From an uncultured archaeon (GTDB lineage: Archaea; Asgardarchaeota; Thorarchaeia; Thorarchaeales; Thorarchaeaceae), in NCBI GenBank assembly GCA_964354495.1, contig CAYHAA010000020.1, positions 1-32,000 of the forward strand: DNA of 32,000 nucleotides, written 5' to 3'. The stretch's first letter is position 1, and every line of letters begins with the position of its first letter. Positions 21,935 through 30,549 of the stretch are shown here, one piece after another. The notes beneath the pieces were generated by a model. That model saw only the letters and a list, made by a program, of their open reading frames with translations. It was not told the origin of the DNA and made no database searches. A program made the translations under genes and the position numbers.

Positions 21935-24280
21935 TCAGTCTCCTTCTTTATGTCCTGGATATTCAGCCTGCAGCAGATGTCGTATTCTGGCAGCTATCTT
22001 AGGTCCAACACCTCTCACTTTCTGTAGGCCTTTGGTGTCTTCAGAAAAGGTACGTTCCAATGTGCCAAACTCGGTGAGCAACGCTCTGGATATCACAGTG
22101 TCTATTCCAGGGAATCCTGAGAGTATGTACTCCAAGGTATCTGCATCACCGGCCTTGGTTTCCCCTGATCGAGTACGCAATGGCTTTCTCGATGAGACCT
22201 GTTCAAGATGTGCAATACGATACAGAACATTAGCAGTCTCCTCTGCATTGCGTGTCCAAATCATTGGGACCTGAATTCTGATTGCAATAGACGCCAACGC
22301 TCCGTATATTGAGGCTGGGTTCACACCCCTCAATCCAATAATCTGCTCTCCCTCAATTATCAGGACTGGACGTCGGTAAGCTGAGCGGAGAGCACTCAGC
22401 TGAACGAAGAGACGCCCATCTATGAGTGACTGTATGAAATCGTTCGACTCCTTCCGTTCAACAGCAACATCCTCAGATGCCACATAGTCTGCAATCTCAA
22501 GGCTCTCTCCAGATATTACAACATCCAAACGAGCAAGTTCACGGGCTACCGCAGTGGGCAGTTCTCTCGAGTCCACGATGAGCTTTATCTGCTCAGGTTC
22601 AGTCTTTGGTGCAATTCTGGTTATTGCCTCTGGGGTTTCTTGTGCCTTACTGTTTCTGGCAAAATCCTCAAGACTTGTCTGTTTCTCGCTCTCCTCGGCC
22701 TCTGCCTCTTTGAGAGCCTTTGGCATCCTCTTCAACTTGCTCATCACGCTCCAGTGATAGAACTCATCATGAGTTCCCTTTGCAACGAAAATCACAACTC
22801 TTCCAGGGACTCTTCGTCCCGTTCTCCCCCTCCTCTGGATATATGGGACCACTGAGGGGACACAGTCATAAAAGATTACAAGATTGCACTCTGGGATATC
22901 AAGGCCCTCTTCTCCTACCTGCGTTGCCACAAGTATGTTGAACTCATTGTTCCTGAAACCGTCTAGGACCTCCACCTGTTTCTTCTGACTGAATCCTTTG
23001 TCGGAGCCGCGGGAGCTCTGCCCCACAAAACGGCTCACACGTGCGTCACCTAATTGCTCCAGTGTTTCTGTGACCTCTGCAGCAGTATCTCGGAAACGTG
23101 TGAAGATCAAAATGCGGGAGTCAAGGTTGGCTGACAATTGCTCACTGACAATCTCAAGGACCGCATCAGCCTTCGGATGTCTGTAGTCCTTCGCTATAAG
23201 AGCCTGCAGTAGCTCCTCGAACTGCTTGAACTCTGCTCTCGTGATGAGATCCTTCAATCCCTTGGAGCTCTTCTTGTTACTGATCTCTTCATACATGCCG
23301 CGAATGTATCTCATCGTAGGTGTCAGGCCCTGTGTTCCAATGAACTCTATGAGGTGAGCTATCCTCAAGAGAGCAGTGAGATTTCTAATGACAAGAAAGA
23401 GAGTCCGTGGTGGATTCGTGAATGAACCTATCTCTTTTCGTACTGCGCCCTGTGCCTGAAGTATTTCTTTCCTTGTCAGGCGTCTGCTATCAGGCAGACT
23501 AAAGCCATGATCGACAACGGGTTTTCTATACTCCTCCATAAGCCTATACAATATATCTCGAAGCGCTTCGACTTCTGGGGGTAACCTGACATAGTACACT
23601 TCTGAGTCGACAGATACGATGTAGTCTTTCACATCCTTGCTCTTCTCATCCCTGACCTCAACATGGGTCAGCCTCAAGTTTTCACATACAGCTATGATGT
23701 GCTCTGCCTGATGCCCAGGAGATGCAGTGAGCCCAAGAGACAGTCGATTATGTCCCTGTTTCTCATAGAGTTCCGCAACGAAGGTATATGCATAGTTGCC
23801 GACGCCACGGTGAGCTTCGTCATAGACAATCAATGAAACATTGGAGAGGTCGTAGCTTCTCTGAATCAAATCGTTTTGTAATGCCTGTGGAGTCATCACA
23901 ATGACGCGCGCCTCTTGCCAAGAGGTATGTCTACTCTCTGGGGCATCTTGCCCAGTCAGGCACACGATTTGGTTCTCCTCCAAGTCAAGTACGCGTTTCA
24001 AATAGCGCGCCTGCTGGTCTACAAGAGGTCGTGATGGTGCGAGGAAGAGCACCTTTGAGTCTTGATGCTCTCTTAGACGTCTTGCTGTCAGGAGGGCGGC
24101 AATTACAGTCTTACCCAGTCCTGTGCTCAGCACTATTATTGTGCTCTGGCGAGATGCTATGTCTGCGAGGTCCACCTGATACGACCTATAGTCCAGAGTC
24201 TGGGTCTTGATTAATGGCATCTCGACGTACTTGTCGTATCCAGTCAAAGCTACAACCCCGAAGGATGCATGGATTTCCAT
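21935..24280 (-). CDS. hef: Hef (FANCM/XPF-like) helicase-nuclease: SF2 helicase, ERCC4 nuclease, HhH
   Basis: RSYQ Q-motif, STGLGKT, YDEAH, GLTASPG, QRRGRTGR, then VDSRE...VERKESNDF and GVGPK HhH. Start may be TTG 24247. Confidence 0.94.
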   Translation of the reverse strand: MEIHASFGVVALTGYDKYVEMPLIKTQTLDYRSYQVDLADIASRQSTIIVLSTGLGKTVIAALLTARRLREHQDSKVLFLAPSRPLVDQQARYLKRVLDLEENQIVCLTGQDAPESRHTSWQEARVIVMTPQALQNDLIQRSYDLSNVSLIVYDEAHRGVGNYAYTFVAELYEKQGHNRLSLGLTASPGHQAEHIIAVCENLRLTHVEVRDEKSKDVKDYIVSVDSEVYYVRLPPEVEALRDILYRLMEEYRKPVVDHGFSLPDSRRLTRKEILQAQGAVRKEIGSFTNPPRTLFLVIRNLTALLRIAHLIEFIGTQGLTPTMRYIRGMYEEISNKKSSKGLKDLITRAEFKQFEELLQALIAKDYRHPKADAVLEIVSEQLSANLDSRILIFTRFRDTAAEVTETLEQLGDARVSRFVGQSSRGSDKGFSQKKQVEVLDGFRNNEFNILVATQVGEEGLDIPECNLVIFYDCVPSVVPYIQRRGRTGRRVPGRVVIFVAKGTHDEFYHWSVMSKLKRMPKALKEAEAEESEKQTSLEDFARNSKAQETPEAITRIAPKTEPEQIKLIVDSRELPTAVARELARLDVVISGESLEIADYVASEDVAVERKESNDFIQSLIDGRLFVQLSALRSAYRRPVLIIEGEQIIGLRGVNPASIYGALASIAIRIQVPMIWTRNAEETANVLYRIAHLEQVSSRKPLRTRSGETKAGDADTLEYILSGFPGIDTVISRALLTEFGTLERTFSEDTKGLQKVRGVGPKIAARIRHLLQAEYPGHKEGD

Positions 24281-25495: not shown

Positions 25496-25840
25496 ATGAT
25501 GACTACTACCACTAAGGAGCCAATGCCAAGCATCGAGGCAGAGCTCTACGAGCTGAAGATGCCGGGTCGACTCTTGGGAAAGGAAGTACTTGATAACAGG
25601 GCTCGACGCATTGGCATTGTTAGAAGCATAAGAATCGCCTTGCATCCATTACGCTCCGAGCTCATTGTGAAGGGCGCAGAAGTCGAGTTTCCTGTCGACT
25701 TCTCGAAGGTTGATGCTGTCGGCACTGTGGTACAGCTTAACTCGGTGGTCAAGGATGCAGAAGAGATAGAGGTCCATGATGTCATAAGGCTACAGAAAGA
25801 GGTCCTTGACGACATCAAATCGTGTCTGGGCGGACAGTAG
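25496..25840 (+). CDS. PRC-barrel domain protein
   Basis: LLGKEVLDNRARRIGIVRSI and PVDFSKVDAVGTVVQL fit the PRC-barrel pattern; AAGGAG upstream. Confidence 0.72.
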   Translation: MMTTTTKEPMPSIEAELYELKMPGRLLGKEVLDNRARRIGIVRSIRIALHPLRSELIVKGAEVEFPVDFSKVDAVGTVVQLNSVVKDAEEIEVHDVIRLQKEVLDDIKSCLGGQ

Positions 25841-25910
25841 TTCCACAACAAGGGCATTTCGAAGAGCTTATACAGCTCGGCTGCCTCCTTCCATTTCTGG
25901 AGGCAAATCC

Positions 25911-26732
25911 ATGGTCCTCACTGTTGAACAACTTGCACGGGCTATTGATCACACCGAGCTAAAGCCAGAGGCTAAGCAGAGTAAGATAAAGCAGCTCTGT
26001 GAAGAGGCAATATCGTACAATTTTGCAGCAGTCTGTATCAACCCAGTCCATATTGAGTATGCAGCTCAGCTGCTCAAGGACTCAGCAGTAAAGGTGGCTT
26101 CTGTCATAGGCTTTCCACTCGGAGCTACTCTGTCTGAGGTCAAGGCCATGGAAACTCGTGAGGTCGTGAGGCGGGGGGCAGATGAAGTTGATATGGTGAT
26201 CAACGTTGGCGCCTTGCGTGACGAGAATTACGATCTTGTGCGAAGCGACATAGAAGCGGTAGTTGCAGCCTCTGGCGAGGCTCTTGTGAAGGTCATCCTC
26301 GAGACTGGCCTGCTCACTGATGACCAGAAGAAGAAGGCATGTCTTCTATCCAAGGAGGCAGGTGCAGATTTTGTCAAGACCTCGACTGGGTTTGGACCAA
26401 TGGGAGCGACTCCTTATGATGTCAAACTCATGCGAGAGACTGTGGGTGACTCCATGGGTGTGAAGGCTGCTGGAGGAATCCGTACATTCAAGGAGGCTCT
26501 CCGATTGATAGATGCGGGAGCCAATAGACTCGGAACGAGCTCTGGGATAGGAATCATTGAAGACTACCGATGGGCTCAGTATAGTGAGTCTTGGATGCAG
26601 CCCGACAAACCCTGCTGGACATGCCCGAGTCGCATGGCGAACATAGCGAAACAACCCAAAGAAGTGTATCTCTGGTATAAACAGCGGTGCCTGATGTGTC
26701 CAAACAAGGACCATAATATCTTCACAGAATAG
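25911..26732 (+). CDS. deoC: 2-deoxyribose-5-phosphate aldolase with a C-terminal four-cysteine extension
   Basis: IDHTELKP, VIGFPLG, KVILETG, FVKTSTGF (Schiff-base Lys), GVKAAGGIR, RLGTSS. ATG 25911 behind GGAGG. Confidence 0.95.
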   Translation: MVLTVEQLARAIDHTELKPEAKQSKIKQLCEEAISYNFAAVCINPVHIEYAAQLLKDSAVKVASVIGFPLGATLSEVKAMETREVVRRGADEVDMVINVGALRDENYDLVRSDIEAVVAASGEALVKVILETGLLTDDQKKKACLLSKEAGADFVKTSTGFGPMGATPYDVKLMRETVGDSMGVKAAGGIRTFKEALRLIDAGANRLGTSSGIGIIEDYRWAQYSESWMQPDKPCWTCPSRMANIAKQPKEVYLWYKQRCLMCPNKDHNIFTE

Positions 26733-26744
26733 GAGGAATAACGA

Positions 26745-28544
26745 GTGTCTGATGCATCATCTCAACTATATTCTGAGGCCGAGCTGCTCTTCATCTCCCT
26801 TATTGATAGGACCATCACTCGAAAGCCTCTGCCTCCGGCCCTCTACAAGGAGTACCTCGGTGGTCGTGGTCTTGGTGTGAAGTTGCTCTACGATAATCTT
26901 GCACCGGGTATTGCTCCTCTCTCCCCAGATAACTGGTTAGTCTTTGCAGTGGGCCCATCAACTGCGACATCAGTCCCTACAGGTGGCCGTTTTGTTGTGA
27001 TTACCAAGTCTCCTGCTACGGGAACAATATTCGACTCGAATGCAGGTGGATACTTTGGCGCTCAGTTACGTCGTGCTGGCCTCGCTGCAGTCATCTTCAC
27101 CGGAGCCTCAAAATCACCTGTCTATCTCTGGATCAATGACAATCAGGTCGAGATTCGTGATGCTTCCAAGATCTGGGGCAAGACTACAGACGTCGCGACC
27201 GACCAGCTGATCAAGGAGACCGATGAAAAGGCACAGGTCGCCTGTATTGGTCCTGCCGGGGAGAATATGATCAATCTCGCAGCTATCGTGACTGACAAGC
27301 ACAGGGCTGCGGGTCGTGGCGGCGTCGGAGCTGTGATGGGTTCCAAGAAGCTTAAGGCAGTGGTCGTTCGTGGGACAAGGACTCCTGGCGTTGCTCAGCC
27401 CGAGAAACTGCGAGAGGCAGTAGAACGAGCACGTCTTCTTATCAAGAAGAACCCAGTGACAGACAAATCGTTGCCAGTCTATGGTACTCCAGTCCTTGTC
27501 AGTGTGATAAACGAGGCTGGAATGCTGCCCACTCGTAACTTCCAAGAGGGTAGATTCAATGATGCTGATGGAGTCTCAGGAGAGAAACTGCTAGAGCGCT
27601 TTTCTCTAAAGCCCTACAACTGCTATGGTTGTCCTATTGGTTGTGGACGCATGAGTCGGGTGCGGGGTAAGGATATGGGCGGTCCCGAATTCGAGTCGAT
27701 ATGGGCACTTGGCCCGCAATGCGGAATCAACGACCTCGAATGGATTGCTTTGGCGAACGATAAGTGCAACCTATTGGGAATCGATACAATCTCAGTCGGT
27801 AGTACTCTCGGGTGTGCCATGGAGCTTGTTCAAAGGGGCAAACTAGAGCATTCGCTCAAGTTTGGCGATACGACGGGAGTCCTTGAAATGATTGAAGATA
27901 TCGCTTATGCCCGTGGTCTGGGAGCGGAGCTGGGGAAGGGTTCCAAAGTATTCGCAGCGAATTATGGAGCTCCTGAGCTCGCCATGCAGGTCAAGGGCCT
28001 TGAGATACCAGCGTACGACCCACGAGGTGTGCAGGGGCATGCTCTTGGGTATGCCACATCAAACAGAGGTGGCTGCCATCTTCGGTCCTACATGATTGGT
28101 CCCGAAATCTTGGGAAGCCCCGTGCTAGTAGACCGGGATATAACCGAAGGCAAGGCCGATCTCGTAATCCTGTTCCAGAATCTATCTGCTGCTATGGACT
28201 GTATGGTTGTGTGCAGATTCACGAACTTTGCTTGGACAGTAGACGACTACGCCGCGATGGTCAGCGCAGGCACGGGTCTAAAGATTGATGGCAAGGAACT
28301 ACTTCGCATCGGAGCGCGGATCTGGAATCTAGAGAAACTGTTCAATATACGTGAGGGATTCGGGAAGAGTGATGACGCTCTGCCTCCACGCTTCTCCACT
28401 CCACTCACAGAAGGTGGCTCGAGAAAAAGGGTAGCTCAGATTGATGTAATGCTTCCAGAGTATTATTCTCGGAGAGGTTGGGACAAAGAGGGACGACCTA
28501 CTGGGAAACTGCTGAAGAGCCTCAACATCCCTATCGAAAGGTGA
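26745..28544 (+). CDS. aor: Tungsten-dependent aldehyde:ferredoxin oxidoreductase
   Basis: YLGGRGLG, KSPATG, SNAGG, GRGGVGAVMGSKKLKA, CYGCPIGCG, GPEFES, LGIDTIS, YDPRG, RGGCH. GGAGG SD; starts 12 nt after the deoC stop. Confidence 0.93.
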   Translation: MSDASSQLYSEAELLFISLIDRTITRKPLPPALYKEYLGGRGLGVKLLYDNLAPGIAPLSPDNWLVFAVGPSTATSVPTGGRFVVITKSPATGTIFDSNAGGYFGAQLRRAGLAAVIFTGASKSPVYLWINDNQVEIRDASKIWGKTTDVATDQLIKETDEKAQVACIGPAGENMINLAAIVTDKHRAAGRGGVGAVMGSKKLKAVVVRGTRTPGVAQPEKLREAVERARLLIKKNPVTDKSLPVYGTPVLVSVINEAGMLPTRNFQEGRFNDADGVSGEKLLERFSLKPYNCYGCPIGCGRMSRVRGKDMGGPEFESIWALGPQCGINDLEWIALANDKCNLLGIDTISVGSTLGCAMELVQRGKLEHSLKFGDTTGVLEMIEDIAYARGLGAELGKGSKVFAANYGAPELAMQVKGLEIPAYDPRGVQGHALGYATSNRGGCHLRSYMIGPEILGSPVLVDRDITEGKADLVILFQNLSAAMDCMVVCRFTNFAWTVDDYAAMVSAGTGLKIDGKELLRIGARIWNLEKLFNIREGFGKSDDALPPRFSTPLTEGGSRKRVAQIDVMLPEYYSRRGWDKEGRPTGKLLKSLNIPIER

Positions 28545-28593
28545 AAATGCCCACTATCCGCAGACCGGTAAAGAATAACTGGAGATGCTCTAG

Positions 28594-30549
28594 CTGCCAA
28601 GAGAAAAACACAGTCGCAGGAAGTTCCGAAGAGGACATGCACCCTACTTGACCAAGATTCGGTTCTACTGGTGCGACTCATGCAACGTACCAAGAATCGC
28701 AGAGACAGAGTGCAGCACCTGTGGTACGCTACCAAGGCAGGTAGAGCTGTCACCGCCAGGGGACCCGTTTCCAGCGATGGATGGCCACCTCAAGAGGGCA
28801 ATAGACACGATTGACTCTCAGTTCGGAGATGGTGTGGGACTTGTTTTGCTTCCTACAAGCAAGACGATAGTGATGAATAAGGTGTCCTCGCTGGATGCTA
28901 TGTATGAGATCATTGTGGACGGATACTTGGTTGGCAGATTACGATTTGATATTGAAAAACACGGATACACCTTTCTCCTTGCTATTGAAGGAGCTCGTAG
29001 AATCGGTGCAGTCAGTAGGCAGAAGTGGGTCTCTATCCATGACGGTGTTCTGAAATATCTGAGAGATGGAGCGAATCTGATGCTCCCTGGTGTACAGGGC
29101 TGTGACTCAGGGATAGAGGTGGATGACGAAGTCTGGATTGTCGGCTCAGATGGTGTTGTCCTCGGCAATGGCATTGCACGAATGAGCGGTGCTGAAATGG
29201 CGAAAGAGAGCAAAGGATTCGCAGTCAAGATTCGCGAGGTTTCCAATCCTACCCCTCCGGCAGAGAATACAGTCGAATCGACGTGGGATGATGCTGTCGC
29301 GGCGAATCTGAATAATCTTGTCAGAATCGAGGAAGAGGCCGTTTCTTTTGTCAGACGTGTCGTCGAAAAGAACAAGGGTCTTCCTGTTGTTGTAGGCTTT
29401 AGCGGAGGAAAAGACTCTCTCGTAACCTATCTTGTCGTGGAGAGAGCAATAGGAGAGAGCCCCCCACTCTTCTTCATGGATACAGGCCTTGAGCTCCCTG
29501 AAACCATCGAATTCATTCGCAGGTTCGCAGAGGGGCGAAATGTACGAATCATTGGCGAGAAGGCTGGAGACCGATTCTGGCAATCTTTGGACGTCTTCGG
29601 TCCGCCGGCCAGAGACTTTCGTTGGTGCTGCAAGGTTCTCAAACTGGGGCCAGCAGCCACATCAATTGCTGCAGAGCTCGGTAGCGAGACCCTCTCCTTC
29701 ATGGGTCAGAGAAAGATGGAGTCTTTCCAGAGATCCGTAGAACCCAGAGTCACAGAGAATCCGTGGGTTCCTGGGCAGATTTCAGCCAACCCGATACAGA
29801 ATTGGAACGCTCTTGAGGTATGGCTGTACACATTCAAGATGAGGGCTGACTTCAACCCGCTCTATACCAAGGGCTATCACAGAATGGGCTGCTACTTATG
29901 TCCTGCATCGCCGCTTGCTGAACTGGAGAGTCTACGTCAGACCCATCCTGAGCTCTACAAGCAGTGGGATGAGAAGATGAGAGAGTGGGCTGGGCGGTAC
30001 GGTTTTCCAGAGGACTGGTTTGAGCTAGGGTTTTGGCGCTGGAAGAACCTGCCAAAGGGGCAGCTCGAACTTATCAACCGACTTGGCTTGAGTATCACTC
30101 CCGCACGACAGAGCCCTGGAGAGAAAATCGAGCTCAACATCACAAAAGGAGTATCCCCATGCACCAAATCTGGTTTCAGTCTTGAAGGCTCCTTCTCAGC
30201 TGGTATTGATCTTAGCAGAATTTCAAAAATCATGCCCATATTCGGGAGTACGAAGGTCTCTGAGGAACTTGGCGCCCTTCGAACAACATCTGGAGAGAAC
30301 CATATTGCGTTCTTTAGCTCTGGTTCTGTGGTCGTGCGTGGCCCCGATGAGCGTACTGTGGAATGTCTTGCTAAGCAATTGGAGCGTGCGACTCGGAGGG
30401 CTCTTCTCTGTCAAGCATGCGGTTCCTGTATCCCACAGTGTGACCAGGGTGCTCTATATCATGATAACGGAAAGATTGCCGTGGACGAAGACAAGTGCAT
30501 TAACTGCCTTGAGTGCGACAAATGGCCTTGCCCTACATATCTGACTTAG
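28594..30549 (+). CDS. Zn-ribbon + PUA + PAPS-reductase-like (PP-loop) + ferredoxin-like multidomain Fe-S protein; probable CTG start at 28594 (ORF track: TTG 28648)
   Basis: WCDSCNVP..CSTCG; PUA region (GANLMLPGV...VDDEVWIV...GNGIARM); FSGGKDS; RWCCKVLKLGP; RMGCYLCP; C-terminal CQACGSCIPQC and CINCLECDKWPCP. Confidence 0.88.
   Translation: MPREKHSRRKFRRGHAPYLTKIRFYWCDSCNVPRIAETECSTCGTLPRQVELSPPGDPFPAMDGHLKRAIDTIDSQFGDGVGLVLLPTSKTIVMNKVSSLDAMYEIIVDGYLVGRLRFDIEKHGYTFLLAIEGARRIGAVSRQKWVSIHDGVLKYLRDGANLMLPGVQGCDSGIEVDDEVWIVGSDGVVLGNGIARMSGAEMAKESKGFAVKIREVSNPTPPAENTVESTWDDAVAANLNNLVRIEEEAVSFVRRVVEKNKGLPVVVGFSGGKDSLVTYLVVERAIGESPPLFFMDTGLELPETIEFIRRFAEGRNVRIIGEKAGDRFWQSLDVFGPPARDFRWCCKVLKLGPAATSIAAELGSETLSFMGQRKMESFQRSVEPRVTENPWVPGQISANPIQNWNALEVWLYTFKMRADFNPLYTKGYHRMGCYLCPASPLAELESLRQTHPELYKQWDEKMREWAGRYGFPEDWFELGFWRWKNLPKGQLELINRLGLSITPARQSPGEKIELNITKGVSPCTKSGFSLEGSFSAGIDLSRISKIMPIFGSTKVSEELGALRTTSGENHIAFFSSGSVVVRGPDERTVECLAKQLERATRRALLCQACGSCIPQCDQGALYHDNGKIAVDEDKCINCLECDKWPCPTYLT

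Follow-up and report, generated by a model that had tools for sequence, protein, structure and literature searches.

A widespread archaeal PUA/PAPS-reductase-fold/ferredoxin fusion protein as a candidate RNA backbone phosphorothioate writer

Considering its domain anatomy, the homology of its catalytic cassette to that of BrxP and long SspD, its extra PUA module, the loss of the reductase nucleophile and its single-copy retention without DNA-defence partners, the 651-aa protein encoded at positions 28594..30549 (forward strand) of the 32,000-nt Thorarchaeota sequence analyzed here (the whole of which is named the window) is proposed to be a stand-alone, housekeeping, ATP- and Fe-S-dependent RNA backbone phosphorothioate writer, acting most likely on tRNA and possibly on rRNA. 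We assign a probability of roughly 55% to this reading. As judged from profile matching, the protein is an ordinary member of the widespread, pan-archaeal and functionally uncharacterized PRK13795 family, since it passes the equivalog cut-off of NCBIfam model NF010368 (PRK13795; 600.9 bits against a cut-off of 588, residues 18-643), which is labelled “PUA-PAPS reductase-like fusion” and for which the PRK13795 entry carries the title “hypothetical protein”.

The gene is a single open frame, and comparison of Thorarchaeota loci indicates that it is initiated at the CTG codon at position 28594. CTG is found at the start position in 28 of the 31 loci scored, with either CTG or TTG being kept there, a GGAG-like motif is usually located 8-9 nt before this codon, and a conserved Arg/Lys tail begins at the same point; together these features uphold the start coordinate given in the initial annotation. 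In the window, the motif is represented by a Shine-Dalgarno-like GGAGA (28581..28585, forward strand; 8 nt 5’ of the CTG), while the Arg/Lys-rich N-terminal tail (28594..28647, forward strand; 4-9 Lys or Arg residues in homologs) is predicted to be disordered (pLDDT <50 for residues 1-16). A TTG codon at 28648 was dropped as the start in favor of the CTG on the basis of the same comparison of loci. Database gene calls often begin downstream of 28594 (590-aa entries), and by missing the CTG start (window 28581-28647) gene callers often lose both the basic tail and the Zn ribbon. A promoter and terminator scan gave results no better than chance, and no RNA data set was listed among the sequencing runs containing this DNA.

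An AlphaFold model of the protein (mean pLDDT 89.8, pTM 0.88, disorder being confined to the N-terminal tail) and motif and Pfam analyses define the following order of domains, all encoded on the forward strand. A Zn ribbon of the CxxC..CxxC type (C27, C30, C40 and C43; 28672..28722), common to long SspD, is followed by a pre-PUA plus PUA module (residues ~63-216; 28780..29241) that was recognized by Pfam (PUA, E 6e-17, residues 145-216) and by structure matching, and that is missing in long SspD and BrxP. Next is the PP-loop/PAPS-reductase-fold catalytic domain (29386..29907; Pfam PAPS_reduct, E 2.4e-39, residues 265-438), which contains SGGKDS (29401-29418), RWCCK (29620-29634; C345 and C346) and GCYLCP (29887-29904; C433 and C436), and which is without an ECG(L/I)H tail. 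An α+β domain (residues ~511-604; 30124..30405) defined from the model gives a weak match to the TBP fold (1mp9; Z 9.0, rmsd 2.7, 89 aligned residues), and the ferredoxin-type domain (30409..30531), whose two cysteine groups start at 30409 and 30496, holds eight invariant cysteines that probably bind two [4Fe-4S] clusters. All 16 motif cysteines of the Zn ribbon, catalytic cluster and ferredoxin, together with SGGKDS, are invariant among 30 Asgard homologs with identities down to 34%. The Zn ribbon, PUA domain, SGGKDS, RWCCK, GCYLCP and C-terminal cysteine cluster listed in the initial annotation were thus all recovered in place by the motif and Pfam checks, and two domains, the pre-PUA (residues ~63-140) and the α+β domain, were added to that list.

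The PRK13795 family is represented in 112 of the 151 Asgard genomes sampled, nearly always by one copy, and in all genomes of the host family (26/26), while outside Asgard it is found in Methanosarcinales, Methanomassiliicoccales, Hadarchaea and Thermoproteota. Whole-length structure matches (TM ~0.9) were to clusters from Thermoplasmatota, Methanobacteriota and Thermoproteota, and the named homologs of 67-98% identity are nearly all from Thorarchaeota. This distribution bears out the earlier view of a widespread architecture whose novelty, if any, is confined to function. No solved structure of a PRK13795 member was found. One large Asgard family (f9) is nearly without the gene (a single, partial match among 25 genomes; see also f14 and f17), and could thereby serve as a naturally occurring negative control where the modification is concerned. 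In some members (G089:C13:12584-14023; P0188), frames of 870-900 aa are observed in which the match is split within the catalytic domain, an intein-like pattern.

Next to the 651-aa gene lie deoC, aor and a gene resembling those of polysaccharide deacetylases; deoC, which has a four-cysteine tail, and then the AOR gene (window 25806-28544) are co-oriented with it in most Thorarchaeota loci. Linkage to deoC and aor is limited to Thorarchaeota and rarely seen elsewhere, the neighbors in Methanosarcinales and Methanomassiliicoccales being different (Cas4-like, DinB, FtsZ and PurH). As the neighbors change between lineages, the gene has no conserved partner. No SspC/BrxC ATPase, PglZ or BrxL gene is adjacent to it, the recurring neighbors elsewhere being lineage-specific, and DUF4007/SspB is neither fused to the protein nor encoded among the recurring neighbors (in a genome-wide DUF4007 search the positive control was likewise without a match). 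A small cytidylyltransferase-type gene resembling that of the archaeal FAD synthase RibL lies 4 kb past the gene and outside the window (L015:4615-5076), and is nearby in 22 Thorarchaeota loci. The window further contains a LipS1-family lipoyl synthase-like gene (545-1552; 211 bits against a cut-off of 230) and a gene for a Hef-type helicase-ERCC4 nuclease (21935-24280).

Profile and sequence comparisons indicate that the closest characterized kin of the protein is the pair formed by BrxP and long SspD, which are DNA phosphorothioation enzymes. The best characterized profile was BrxP in a defense library (E 2e-53, versus E 3e-16 for CysH and E 9e-14 for APS reductase), far above DndC, and in other PRK13795 members the BrxP match covers the region from PP-loop to ferredoxin. 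The best annotated full-length relatives are a Treponema SspD encoded in an sspD-sspB-sspC-desulfurase operon (E 9e-50; 31% identity across 448 aa) and a Methanosphaera BREX-4 BrxP (one record in two versions). Among annotated plasmids, the catalytic part was matched over its full length only by these two and by one orphan; a second long SspD with an identical operon layout was also found. Comparison with a long SspD profile extends from the PP-loop to the ferredoxin (probability 100, E 4e-52), and the corresponding alignment is colinear from Zn ribbon to ferredoxin, with a single archaeal insert that contains the pre-PUA and most of the PUA domain. No PUA protein was present among the 50 best Foldseek matches of a long SspD model, the core of which is of low confidence (pLDDT 66.8). 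The α+β/ferredoxin extension has been described as distinguishing BrxP and some of the SspD proteins (PMC12839542), and BrxP together with BrxC produces DNA phosphorothioate (PMC12914056). A 381-aa ferredoxin-bearing, PUA-less relative is encoded on plasmid II of Methanobacterium congolense (L128:5941-7086); it has no annotated ssp or brx neighbors and groups loosely with SspD/BrxP in the tree.

The phylogenetic comparison with CysH and DndC suggested in the initial annotation was based on 213 core columns and a midpoint root, with long branches and few outgroups, the sequences of MJ0066, MJ0973 and FAD synthase being left out; it placed the PRK13795 family with SspD/BrxP and DndC, apart from CysH plus CysD (support 99/97), and a constrained grouping of the family with CysH was rejected (p-AU 0.009). 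The position of DndC shifts between trees, and DndC itself is a poor model of the protein (TIGR03183, 39.2 bits against a cut-off of 290.4), no dndBDE context being present at the gene.

RNA is most likely the target, given that the protein has a PUA module and no DNA-modification partners. Over residues 60-218, the structure resembles the part of archaeosine TGT that binds tRNA, at its C-terminus (1iq8, C2-C3 domains; Z 15.2, rmsd 2.7, 150 aligned residues), with further structure matches to PH0734, MCT-1/eIF2D, NSun6 and Cbf5, and the nearest in-genome paralog of the module is ArcS. In aTGT, NSun6 and Cbf5, the PUA domain docks the 3’ end of RNA. The PUA fold also occurs in a non-RNA enzyme, glutamate 5-kinase being among the fold matches. 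The initial annotation had left open whether a base or the backbone is thiolated and had taken TtcA/TtuA and DndC as models; the backbone is now favored because the catalytic cassette is nearest to those of backbone-modifying enzymes, the closest model being BrxP/SspD instead of the enzymes named there.

A possible link to sulfur supply was provided by a search for longer relatives, which retrieved 91 paralog clusters (the named ones from Methanomicrobiales) fused to a SufS-type cysteine desulfurase. The part of these proteins that extends from the Zn ribbon to the core shares 30-36% identity with the query across ~490 residues, and SGGKDS, CC and GCxxCP are kept in 91/91 clusters, the PLP-lysine motif in at least 70 and the RSGxHC-type cysteine motif in at least 67. 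This paralogous clade is without the ferredoxin, and its PUA domain is too divergent for the PUA-module profile. This desulfurase fusion was also noted by Yu et al. (PMC6286981). Such a partner would fit sulfur insertion or cluster upkeep, rather than sulfate reduction, and these fusions, together with the kinship to BrxP and long SspD, back the earlier suggestion of sulfur insertion. The host genome encodes several class V PLP enzymes in addition to DndA.

It is unlikely that the 651-aa protein is an APS/PAPS reductase, a reading disfavored by the missing catalytic tail, the missing pathway, the phyletic mismatch and the tree. The nucleophile of APS/PAPS reductases is the cysteine of a C-terminal ECG(L/I)H. 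This tail was found in 0 of 42 family members (the query and 41 relatives), as compared to four of six CysH controls (a fifth having ECGFH), and alignment shows that the PP-loop is intact in the PRK13795 family and lost in CysH. The APS-type CC…CxxC ligand set for a [4Fe-4S] cluster is present and aligns with those of 2goy and 7lhr, while the APS/PAPS reductase family models score below their cut-offs (59.9/154, 51.7/235 and 40.5/165 bits). The initial annotation had reported no sulfate-assimilation genes nearby, which holds genome-wide, as Sat, CysD, APS kinase and siroheme sulfite reductase are all missing from the host genome (97.7% complete). Within the host family, Sat is present in 9/26 genomes versus 26/26 for the PRK13795 family. 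That the protein is nonetheless a genuine assimilatory reductase, with its fused ferredoxin in place of thioredoxin, is a view for which the shared fold and cluster motif, the database annotation of the gene as a sulfate-assimilation reductase, the occurrence of Sat in 74/151 Asgard genomes and the APS/PAPS reduction reported in vitro for the M. jannaschii homologs MJ0973 and MJ0066-type (PMC3448663, PMC6286981) may be cited. For MJ0973, the Vmax and kcat reported are low (PMC3448663), sulfite reductase is found in only 1/151 Asgard genomes, many archaea with such genes have no APS source (PMC6286981), and M. infernus, which has both homologs together with Sat, APS kinase and Fsr, does not grow on sulfate (PMC10322725). 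From profile matches (query versus PRK08557, E 4e-57; the M. jannaschii control was also matched in the family survey), the “APS reductase” (MJ0973) and “PAPS reductase” of M. jannaschii appear to be relatives of the PRK13795 family. We thus regard the reductase explanation as very improbable, in agreement with the initial annotation, which had argued against it.

The most serious competitor, which we nevertheless consider unlikely, is an enzyme that thiolates RNA bases, or modifies RNA by some other adenylation-dependent route, in the manner of TtuA, NcsA or TtcA and acts on an unassigned archaeal thio-nucleoside: the same PP-loop plus Fe-S logic, the similarity in fold to NcsA (Z 12.9) and to TtuA (Z 11.0), the tRNA-type PUA module and the desulfurase fusions would all suit it, whereas the core belongs to the PAPS-reductase subgroup (Z 16-21) with backbone-modifying BrxP/SspD as its nearest relatives, and the genome already contains separate ThiI and NcsA/TtuA-type genes. 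The TtuA/NcsA/TtcA models were not among the 25 best NCBIfam matches of the query, and are matched by another host gene. Less probable again is a small-molecule or cofactor enzyme inserting sulfur or adenylating its substrate (LarE-like thiolation or FAD synthesis), in which the PUA domain would be regulatory or vestigial. Its arguments are the top fold matches of the core, namely the eukaryotic FAD synthase 8rom (Z 21.3, rmsd 2.5, 171 aligned residues, 16% identity) and CysD (Z 18.9), and one member (P0141, L134:5001-7202) that has a CysN/EF-1A-like C-terminal region in place of its own; against these, an FAD synthase has no use for cluster cysteines or a ferredoxin, the downstream RibL-like gene is a candidate for that role, and the CysN-like fusion occurs on a single metagenomic contig that could be chimeric. 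Least probable of all is an orphan SspD/BrxP that phosphorothioates the chromosome. The nearest characterized kin do act on DNA, and PUA-like folds are able to read DNA (PMC12839542), but sspB, sspC, brxC and pglZ are absent from the recurring neighbors of 80 loci, the near-universal single-copy retention is unlike that of defense genes, and the host has its own complete dndABCDE cluster (dndB-C-D-E plus dndA; L014:6575-12648, contig C16, ~8.6-14.6 kb), DndC being found in 4/61 host-family genomes.

If the protein is an RNA backbone phosphorothioate writer, the basic tail, Zn ribbon and pre-PUA/PUA module would dock the RNA, plausibly through its 3’ end, and the SGGKDS PP-loop would use ATP to activate a backbone phosphate with release of PPi. 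Sulfur from a housekeeping cysteine desulfurase would then be passed to the catalytic [4Fe-4S] cluster (CC…CxxC) to replace a non-bridging oxygen, and the C-terminal ferredoxin would supply the electrons needed to reduce a persulfide or to repair the cluster; the activation, sulfur transfer and electron supply steps are at the proposal stage for DndC and SspD as well. A broader and clearly more tentative proposal, which we consider rather doubtful, is that the family as a whole represents an undescribed tRNA/rRNA phosphorothioate writer, being the housekeeping counterpart, and possibly the ancestor, of SspD/BrxP, and that misannotated members of this family account for the archaeal “APS/PAPS reductases” from which sulfate assimilation has been deduced in methanogens and Asgard archaea.

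The literature searched, which left most subscription papers outside its coverage, contained no paper dealing with RNA phosphorothioate enzymes of archaea or with the PRK13795 PUA fusion. Phosphorothioates in archaeal rRNA and tRNA, and the enzymes responsible, are reportedly the subject of a 2025-26 report; this makes a new function less likely, and the function of the family may have been published already. According to a 2021 review, RNA phosphorothioate had no known enzyme at that time (PMC8341892). Were the writer reading correct, a very common archaeal gene would introduce a backbone modification into RNA, a single-chain stereospecific writer of interest to RNA-therapeutics chemists would be at hand, an RNA housekeeping enzyme would be tied to DNA phosphorothioate defense systems, and a false marker of sulfate assimilation would leave archaeal annotation, explaining the inability of M. 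infernus to use sulfate (PMC10322725). The elements that are new here are the comparison with long SspD, which match domain by domain, the fusions to a desulfurase, the counts across genomes and the conservation of the CTG start, the 651-aa gene itself being one more Thorarchaeota example of a known family.

In comparison with known systems, the Thorarchaeota protein differs from its PRK13795 relatives only in its CTG start and basic tail. CysH shares the fold and, in its APS-type form, also the four cluster cysteines, while the ECG(L/I)H tail, the lost PP-loop and the pathway are all on the CysH side only. TtuA, NcsA and TtcA share PP-loop and [4Fe-4S] chemistry on RNA, but belong to another PP-loop subgroup (Z ~11-13 versus 16-21), have no PUA domain and correspond to a separate host gene. 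DndC shares the SGGKDS PP-loop, GCxxC and its side of the tree with respect to CysH/CysD, but is without PUA domain, Zn ribbon and ferredoxin, and a separate true DndC is carried by the host genome. BrxP and long SspD have in common with the archaeal protein, in the same order, the PP-loop, cluster motif, GxW motif, α+β domain (at a position equivalent to residues ~511-604) and ferredoxin, and long SspD also shares the Zn ribbon and a subsequent D-x-R-P-x-F segment. The pre-PUA/PUA insert (~75 residues or more) is found in the archaeal protein and not in BrxP/SspD, which are sporadically distributed and accompanied by DUF4007/SspB and a linked SspC/BrxC ATPase. The characterized phosphorothioate systems require a partner ATPase, whereas the archaeal gene, with its housekeeping distribution, occurs without a linked one.
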